In this document: positions 10,112-11,056 of the stretch, piece by piece
How the letters are laid out: every line of letters begins with the position of its first letter
Numbering within the stretch: position 1 is the stretch's first letter
IMG/VR virus record: IMGVR_UViG_3300045988_142641
Strand: one strand, 5' to 3'
Origin: a virus
Lineage: Duplodnaviria > Heunggongvirae > Uroviricota > Caudoviricetes
DNA: 35,258 nucleotides
Made by a program: the position numbers and the translations under genes
Notes under the pieces: model-generated
The model's database searches: none
What the model was told of the DNA's origin: nothing
The model's input: only the letters and a program-made list of their open reading frames with translations

Positions 10112-11056
10112 ATGGATTTAATTATGGAATGGAGATTTTTAGGTTCTCTATCAGAGGCCAGGAAATCTGGCTGTAGCGGAGTTTATCTTATTGTCCATAA
10201 AGGACTTTTCAGTCGTGTGGTTTACGTTGGGGTAAGTTGTAATGTAGGTAGAAGGATAACCGAACATTACGACGGTTATCTTAGAGGAAATCGAACAATT
10301 TACGACGCTGGTCACGACGAAGACGTTTATCGCTTCATGTCAGCTTATAAAATTCATAACCACACAAAATACTATCAAGCCTTGGCGAATGATTATAAGA
10401 TATGGGCATCTACCACAATGTATTCTGATTTGCCGAAAAACATGCTAGCAAAAAGCCAAACCTTTGATACTGATTGGCAGAGCATTGCATTAGAAAAATA
10501 TATTCCTCAACTGGTAGTATGGGCCCTTCCAATGGCAAAGTACTGTTATTTAAATGCAAGCAGGATTGAAAGTGTAATCCAATCAAAGCTCATTAAATCT
10601 TTTGATTTGAGAGGTTTTTTTAATATAAAGCAATTAAGCATATTGGGTAAAATTGAATATCCCTATATGGAAAAGGTCAAAGTTTTCATTATTAACACAC
10701 CTGATTTAGACCCGGCATCCCAGCTTATTTTTAGCAATCTATATAACAAAAAAACTGATAACAACTTCTGTAAAGAGTTCCGTTCACAATTTAAAAGCGA
10801 GATTTTTCAGAGGGAAAGTGAAACTCAGAGAAAGCGAACTATCAGGGAGCATAAGGTATCTCTTTATGAAAATTATGGCAAGCCTTGGACTTTAAAGGAA
10901 ATGGAAAAACTTAGAGTCATGCTTGTTGATTTTGATTTGTCCCCGATAGAAATATCTGAGTATCTAGGAAGAGAGCCGCGCTCTATATCTAAAAAAATAA
11001 GCGAAAATGATAAAGTTACTAATTATAAATGGCGAGAGAGCGTCGGCTGGTTGTGA
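10112..11056 (+). CDS. GIY-YIG nuclease-domain protein (314 aa), possible free-standing homing endonuclease or defence nuclease
   Basis: N-terminus SGVYLIVHKGLFSRVVYVGVSCNVGRRITEHYDG fits the GIY...YIG...R...EH pattern of GIY-YIG nucleases (UvrC/I-TevI family); C-terminal region is HTH-like (SPIEISEYLGREPRSISKKI). Start codon uncertain (10112 or 10124). Confidence 0.65.
   Translation: MDLIMEWRFLGSLSEARKSGCSGVYLIVHKGLFSRVVYVGVSCNVGRRITEHYDGYLRGNRTIYDAGHDEDVYRFMSAYKIHNHTKYYQALANDYKIWASTTMYSDLPKNMLAKSQTFDTDWQSIALEKYIPQLVVWALPMAKYCYLNASRIESVIQSKLIKSFDLRGFFNIKQLSILGKIEYPYMEKVKVFIINTPDLDPASQLIFSNLYNKKTDNNFCKEFRSQFKSEIFQRESETQRKRTIREHKVSLYENYGKPWTLKEMEKLRVMLVDFDLSPIEISEYLGREPRSISKKISENDKVTNYKWRESVGWL

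Follow-up and report, generated by a model that had tools for sequence, protein, structure and literature searches.

In a caudoviricete genome of 35,258 nucleotides (IMG/VR record IMGVR_UViG_3300045988_142641; hereafter, the window means this whole stretch), we analyzed an open reading frame (ORF) at positions 10112-11056 that encodes an N-terminal GIY-YIG nuclease domain and a C-terminal helix-turn-helix (HTH). The protein represents an uncharacterised family, and its most likely role is that of a new nuclease for phage defence rather than of a selfish homing endonuclease. On the basis of its genomic associations, we lean toward the view that the gene is an exchanged, self-sufficient one-gene cassette encoding a DNA endonuclease that acts as cargo against phages or other mobile genetic elements (MGEs). 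The window is a P2-like (Peduovirus-type) prophage, and the gene sits between genes G and FI inside a conserved inverted-repeat frame, at the position of P2 Z/fun.

The ORF and its parts were assigned as follows.
10112-11056, + strand: ORF for the GIY-YIG nuclease with Myb/GcrA-like HTH, 314 amino acids (aa)
10112-10741, + strand: extended GIY-YIG nuclease domain, aa 1 to about 210
10184-10186, 10223-10225 and 10253-10255: codons of Y25, Y38 and R48
10265-10267, 10568-10570 and 10622-10624: codons of H52, E153 and N171
10763-10864, + strand: helical linker, aa 218-251, variable in sequence
10874-11017, + strand: three-helix HTH, Myb/SANT/GcrA-like, aa 255-302

The N-terminal ~210 residues form an extended GIY-YIG catalytic domain whose Tyr/Tyr/Arg/His/Glu set appears intact. 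In the Pfam search, the window protein itself stayed below threshold for PF01541 (15.8 bits at residues 22-62, against a gathering score of 22.6), while several relatives exceeded it (P0074, P0076, P0081, P0083 and P0090; 23-32 bits), and all 19 aligned family members matched at E ≤ 0.1 (best 7e-6). Alignment of the family profile with the I-TevI catalytic domain by hhalign gave 91.7% probability (E 8e-7) and paired Y25/Y38/R48/H52 with I-TevI Y6/Y17/R27/H31; we treat this as a lead rather than a database result. A search of PDB sequence profiles returned nothing significant. AlphaFold modelled the full-length protein with a mean predicted local distance difference test (pLDDT) score of 91.0 and a predicted template modelling (pTM) score of 0.83, rising to 94.6 and 0.92 for residues 1-215, and the model has the GIY-YIG alpha/beta fold. 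Its two signature motifs lie on adjacent strands (G23-V24-Y25 on strand 23-30, Y38-V39-G40 on strand 34-42), and R48 and H52 both lie on helix 45-58. These findings bear out the nuclease assignment of the original prediction, which had been made from the sequence alone.

Conservation was examined in 45 sequences down to 22% identity. Five residues were invariant (G40, Y73, E153, G179 and P197), Y25 and Y38 were nearly so, and conservation of at least 90% was found for W7, G11, G23, Y25, R35, Y38, R48, H52, G59, D71, M76, W98, W122, Q157 and L178. The Glu that had been read as part of an RR..EH element (E51) is variable and not catalytic. E153, on helix 146-164 directly after strand 134-140, is instead the probable catalytic Glu, placed like I-TevI E75, which also follows a third strand; the equivalence is drawn from topology because hhalign lost register across an insertion. 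This insertion of about 60 residues (about 59-120), with conserved positions of its own, separates the first helix from the remaining core, so that the canonical motif spacing that had been proposed holds for the first half of the domain only.

The C-terminal ~50 residues are a predicted Myb/GcrA-like three-helix DNA-binding domain joined to the nuclease by a long helix, which gives substance to the HTH-like region noted at first. W259, E265, L267, R268 and R287 of this HTH are invariant in the close family. Pfam searches with the window protein and family members matched no NUMOD/IENR1-type module. GcrA reads methylated DNA, which makes recognition of a DNA modification by this HTH an attractive idea, by analogy.

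Searching 5.8 billion clusters returned 72 homologous clusters, nearly all of 308-317 aa and alignable end to end, with identities from 99% down to 40%. Their hosts are Enterobacterales, Vibrio, Photobacterium, Aeromonas, Pseudoalteromonas, Thalassotalea and two betaproteobacteria. In NCBI, the homologues go by the name "GIY-YIG nuclease family protein". The true start may be the in-frame ATG at 10124, four codons downstream, which would give 310 aa, since this second ATG (MEW...) is where most homologues, likewise of 310 aa, start; neither ATG 10112 nor ATG 10124 is preceded by an obvious Shine-Dalgarno sequence. An exhaustive profile search of 1.84 billion representative proteins yielded just 138 clusters at E ≤ 1e-3. 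Many of these are 200-235 aa long and match profile positions 1 to ~208 only, which shows that the first ~210 residues make up an autonomous domain, found also in proteins that lack the C-terminal module. The HTH-less relatives (among P0090-P0135) consist of the extended GIY-YIG domain alone, including its ~60-residue insertion, and one relative of 515 aa (P0096) carries DUF5677 in place of the HTH; the nuclease module has thus been combined with different partners.

The structural neighbours of the model, with the value tabulated for each, were the N-terminal domain of AtGrxS16 (7.5), the N-terminal domain of UvrC (6.5), T4 endonuclease II (6.2), R.Eco29kI (6.2) and I-TevI (5.8), and Slx1 was also among them. 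The presence of UvrC-N and Slx1 here, together with an HTH that resembles transcription-factor domains, would fit a housekeeping or repair-type enzyme (UvrC/Cho/Slx1-like) or a catalytically inert DNA-binding regulator. We consider this extremely improbable: the small family is patchy and confined to MGEs, its DNA is low in GC, the catalytic residues are strictly conserved and not lost in most homologues, and neither repair partners nearby nor conserved chromosomal synteny with repair genes was seen.

We then delimited the cassette, and the following elements were defined around the ORF.
9878-9901, + strand: left boundary hairpin HpA, GTCCGCTACTGGCACAGAGCGGAC, counterpart of the lone hairpin at the empty site
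9914-9985, + strand: 5′ element of the cassette, consisting of hairpin HpB (9920-9943) and the conserved core AACAGCATTCTGTGTGAATCA...GGTCA
9986-10111, + strand: AT-rich upstream region with TATAAT-like boxes, presumed to contain the cassette promoter
11094-11117, + strand: right boundary hairpin HpA, GTCCGCTCTTGGCACAGAACGGAC
11117-11178, + strand: conserved tail of the hotspot frame, CTGTCAGATTAGG...GTGCC..., up to the stop codon of gene G

The two HpA copies are 24-nt imperfect palindromes of 88% identity (2 matches against 0.01 expected), and the left one folds at -15.5 kcal/mol (z -2.9). Related prophages with and without the ORF were compared, and the insertion site was defined by a P2-like prophage of E. 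coli ES5 (L001), where ORF379, the gene to the left of the cassette, is followed by one hairpin and then directly by the sequence found after 11117 in the window. This junction (L001 6480-6560) therefore represents the empty site, into which ~1.2 kb has been inserted in the window, with a hairpin on both sides, in line with the separately acquired, repeat-flanked cassette proposed in the original prediction. Across at least 40 loci, cassette homology ends at ~11109-11117, and its start falls within the hairpins or the upstream element, at ~9876, 9917-9929 or 9986. Of the right HpA, the left half moves together with the cassette, and the right half varies along with the flank beyond.

Several other readings of the repeats were discarded. 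The hairpins are not intrinsic terminators, because no T-run follows them on either strand, and an IS200/IS605-type transposon with terminal hairpins was rejected because the empty site already holds one hairpin. An ERIC-like reading of "GTGAATCnCCAGGGAGC" was dropped, since the element occurs at 1-3 places per carrying E. coli genome (1,031 of 5,426 genomes) and is not a high-copy dispersed repeat. Rfam returned two chance-level matches for 6700-11300 (IRES_Bip, E 0.89; a tmRNA fragment, E 0.062), and the flanking elements are thus not a described RNA family. The tmRNA match, to an internal piece, lies at 8161-8214 (+ strand) in the AT-rich spacer after ORF289 and is most likely due to chance (12.2 bits against a gathering score of 47).

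The genes of the surrounding locus are listed below.
5568-6758, - strand: tail sheath gene FI (phrog_23, E 1e-159), left of the hotspot
7286-8155, + strand: ORF289, cargo in the G-FI interval
8275-8610, - strand: 3′ remnant of a tyrosine recombinase gene
8646-9785, - strand: ORF379 (phrog_12525, E 7e-139), function unknown
11179-11706, - strand: tail fibre assembly gene G (phrog_136, E 1e-79), right of the hotspot
11710-13755, - strand: tail fibre gene H, right of the hotspot

ORF289, the recombinase remnant, ORF379 and the GIY-YIG ORF together fill the 4.4 kb G-FI interval, whose GC content is 34-43% against 51-58% in the tail genes; the GIY-YIG gene has 34-36%. ORF289 was compared with PHROGs, NCBIfam and PADLOC, and none of the three gave a match. 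A functional partnership of the nuclease with ORF379 or ORF289 was rejected: ORF379 is present without the GIY-YIG gene in L001, and both ORFs are missing from 21 of 21 GIY-YIG loci of other genomes.

The repeat frame corresponds to that of the P2 Z/fun locus in position (G-FI) and in arrangement (HpB and core at one end, HpA and tail at the other). In phage P2, the FI side shows a hairpin followed by the core "AACAGC.TT.T.TGTGAAT", and the G side shows "G.CTGCTCTTGGCACAGAGCGGACTGTCAGATTAG". This repeat-flanked frame is already described, and our observation agrees with Nilsson et al. 2004 (Mol Biol Evol 21:1) as far as that work is summarised in PMC8987985. The fun locus has been described as a second defence-enriched locus of P2-like phages (Vassallo et al. 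2022, PMC9519451), and the tail genes hold a listed defence hotspot (Moura de Sousa et al. 2026, PMC13586616). The cargo distinguishes our locus from Z/fun: it is unrelated to fun or Z, and the same cargo at the same site (the cassette/G junction) was found in 0 of 5,426 complete E. coli genomes, whose P2-like backbones match the window only from ~11084-11094 onward, and in 0 phage records. The frame also occurs in bacterial islands, and the 5′ element (HpB and core) has a second copy in the window at 6945-7016, upstream of ORF289.

The outermost hairpins of the hotspot are extended by inverted decamers, AATCTGACAG (6942-6951) and CTGTCAGATT (11117-11126), which bracket it as a whole, as though a single long palindrome of ancestral origin held all the cargo in its loop. 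Non-P2 loci of Enterobacter, Pantoea, Citrobacter, Salmonella and Brenneria likewise have the right-hand tail (CTGTCAGATTAGG...GTGCC...) after the cassette.

When we examined the distribution of the cassette, a 98.9% identical copy was found in 279 of 5,426 complete E. coli genomes. The copy of E. coli 042 lies in a lambdoid prophage, adjoining an intact 200-aa tyrosine recombinase, WP_023147793.1. Elsewhere, the cassette follows the tail fibre assembly gene in a Mu-like prophage (L026) and is found beside TIR and ThsB_TIR proteins in a Salmonella integrase/MobA island, in a Brenneria cargo region with ArdC, TerB and weak TrwB-type matches, beside HNH and RES/HEPN proteins in Undibacterium, on four plasmids, and in an island of E. 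coli JCH8249 between DarTG with a type I restriction-modification (RM) system and a YeeP-like GTPase/Ag43 module. No neighbour gene was conserved across the contexts compared. On one of the plasmids (NZ_AP022179.1; L049 7018-8256), an IS110-family transposase gene lies directly downstream of the cassette, approximately where the 3′ hairpin is expected; IS110-type elements target palindromic repeats.

The homologue of Vibrio parahaemolyticus (L037) is a single-ORF integron gene cassette. Its ORF (7001-7930) stands alone between repeats at 6861-6980 and 7936-8060, which belong to a 13-copy family of ~120-nt attC-type repeats, and its neighbours are typical chromosomal-integron cassettes (acetyltransferases, ParE/Phd, NUDIX); the integrase is not on the contig.

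These observations bear on the choice between homing endonuclease and defence effector that the original prediction had put as a question. A free-standing GIY-YIG homing endonuclease would cut cassette-less alleles, such as a lone hairpin junction, and be copied in by repair as a selfish gene. The layout of the window protein is like that of I-TevI, in which a linker joins the N-terminal GIY-YIG domain to a C-terminal HTH, and homing could also account for the precise presence/absence polymorphism at one site and for the 98.9% identical cassette in an unrelated lambdoid prophage. However, the same hairpin frame surrounds nuclease-free cargo, namely P2 Z/fun and ORF289, and movement therefore does not need the GIY-YIG protein. 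In Vibrio, the gene is an integron cassette moved via attC sites, and the contexts as a whole are diverse (P2-like, lambdoid and Mu-like prophages, chromosomal islands, cargo regions of integrative and conjugative elements, plasmids and an integron). A tblastn search of 50,697 phage genome records found no homologue, and TIGR01453 matched residues 22-63 only, at 14.5 bits against a cut-off of 56.05. We thus consider homing very unlikely, and of the two roles it is the defence effector, with validated defence genes among its neighbours, that we favour. The I-TevI/Seg enzymes further differ from our protein in lacking the ~60-residue insertion in the core and in using NUMOD/IENR1 rather than a Myb/GcrA-like module to bind DNA.

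The neighbours in question are defence cassettes. Several Enterobacterales loci (L002, L003, L008, L017 and L020) contain arrays in which hairpins separate cassettes of one or two genes; for most of the hairpins, the best match is in the same orientation. Directly upstream of the GIY-YIG gene in E. coli 042 is PD-T7-1 (E 7e-157; L002 6340-7686), PD-T4-3 (E 2e-140; L024 8362-9132) immediately follows the GIY-YIG gene in Salmonella-type loci, the array of E. coli Nissle 1917 carries HEC-08 (E 1e-173; L050 10127-11224), and DarTG with the type I RM system occupies L051 1-4927. Given these known defence genes in or next to them, the arrays marked out by hairpins behave, in prophages and islands alike, as arrays of defence cassettes. 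PADLOC, run on 135 neighbour ORFs from 18 loci, added LmuB, type I RM subunits, MADS components and weak AriA-like matches, in a few loci.

Under the defence reading, the HTH would tether or target the enzyme on DNA and the GIY-YIG domain would cut nearby, a modular arrangement as in I-TevI or the reader-nuclease type IV enzymes, and the protein would act without a partner or methylase. Because the cassette travels without a methylase or antitoxin, for which the Vibrio cassette leaves no room, host DNA must be spared by substrate choice or activation; recognition could be of phage DNA modification or of foreign sequence or structure, or activity could depend on infection. Some results weigh against a defensive role. 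Ordinary housekeeping genes flank many loci, and no PADLOC model matched the protein beyond weak motif-only matches (PDC-S14, 13.3 bits; UzuA, 13.0 bits). N171, the candidate for the conserved downstream Asn, is invariant in the close family only and is not alignable in distant relatives, and Foldseek against the PDB gave no match at E ≤ 1 for the full-length model. A consensus scan detected no + strand sigma-70 promoter upstream of the ORF; promoter and terminator scans were not above shuffled expectation, with a weak terminator-like site at 11039-11060 only.

The same mobile, defence-rich contexts, and the lack of an immunity partner, would equally suit a nuclease toxin or another factor of competition between MGEs that does not directly restrict phage DNA, for example a factor directed at plasmids or satellites, or an abortive-infection effector whose triggering leads to degradation of host DNA. 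Prophage hotspots carry abortive-infection-type genes too (PMC9122126, PMC13586616). A dedicated DNA-binding HTH suggests targeted rather than indiscriminate cutting, and we regard such a toxin or competition factor as unlikely; sequence grounds do not separate it from direct restriction.

Among known systems, PD-T4-3 resembles the protein in being a GIY-YIG nuclease that is encoded by one gene and forms part of the cargo of prophages or islands, and it is deposited as PDB 9u75 under the title "5hmC specific restriction endonuclease"; the PADLOC model of PD-T4-3 had no match to the window protein at E ≤ 1, and hhalign gave a probability of 0.6%. SNIPE (PD-lambda-1) and Uzume (UzuA) are likewise single-protein defences with a GIY-YIG effector, and SNIPE cuts injected DNA at the membrane (PMC13190303). 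SNIPE combines an N-terminal transmembrane segment and DUF4041 with a C-terminal nuclease, whereas the window protein has its nuclease at the N-terminus and lacks those domains (no PADLOC or Pfam match). The UzuA and PDC-S14 matches (13.0 and 13.3 bits) cover ~45 motif residues rather than the full length, and relatives show the same pattern.

The winged-helix (wH)-GIY-YIG fusions Ahi29725I and Apa233I, which are N6-methyladenine-dependent type IV enzymes, offer a plausible mechanistic analogue, with a small DNA reader, a GIY-YIG nuclease and no methylase (PMC11037411). Their reader is an N-terminal, Gm6ATC-specific winged helix, whereas that of the window protein is the C-terminal Myb/GcrA-like HTH; Dam-methylated DNA would not be a possible target in Dam+ enterobacterial hosts. 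PD-T4-3, the wH-GIY-YIG fusions and SNIPE are precedents for sparing host DNA by substrate choice or activation.

Among the single-protein GIY-YIG defence nucleases, we place the protein as a new variant, in a known hotspot and a known type of repeat frame. If defensive, it would be a fourth, sequence-unrelated family beside PD-T4-3, SNIPE and Uzume, and its different targeting module would probably mean that it discriminates between foreign and self DNA by other means. As it is 310-314 aa long, partner-free and carried even as an integron cassette, it should be easy to test, and a nuclease this compact may find use as a programmable or modification-sensing enzyme. In addition, the occupied and empty alleles of the locus form a clean pair that bears on the mechanism of the cassette exchange long known from P2 Z/fun.

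A candidate agent of this Z/fun-type exchange is the small tyrosine recombinase of which the window keeps the 3′ remnant. The enzyme has ~200 aa, consists of the catalytic domain only and is XerC/XerA/invertase-like (E 1e-14). Intact copies (L002 5420-6022, L008 2405-3013 and L050 9126-9728) sit inside hairpin-delimited arrays of E. coli 042, E. coli Nissle 1917 and Pantoea. The S. diarizonae array has a shorter copy of 139-148 aa (L003 7167-7613), but several arrays (L017, L020) hold no copy within 8 kb. In a more far-reaching reading, which seems to us quite unlikely, the cassette would be a unit of a hairpin-delimited, integron-like system for exchanging defence genes, with the 24-nt hairpins as crossover sites, the ~200-aa recombinase as the missing enzyme and the GIY-YIG/GcrA-like protein as a new stand-alone restriction-type effector. 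Such a system would be common to P2-like and lambdoid prophages and Enterobacterales genomic islands. A variant in which the nuclease itself cuts empty hairpin junctions, driving its own spread, is even less likely.

The window also contains the second classical P2 hotspot (25751-29038, - strand), between replication gene A (29260-31587) and the portal gene (24400-25434). A 388-aa ORF without a PADLOC match lies there beside two adjoining Ser/Thr-kinase-like ORFs of 355 and 354 aa, which matched PADLOC PD-T4-6 and mad6 (E 1e-50 to 1e-54).
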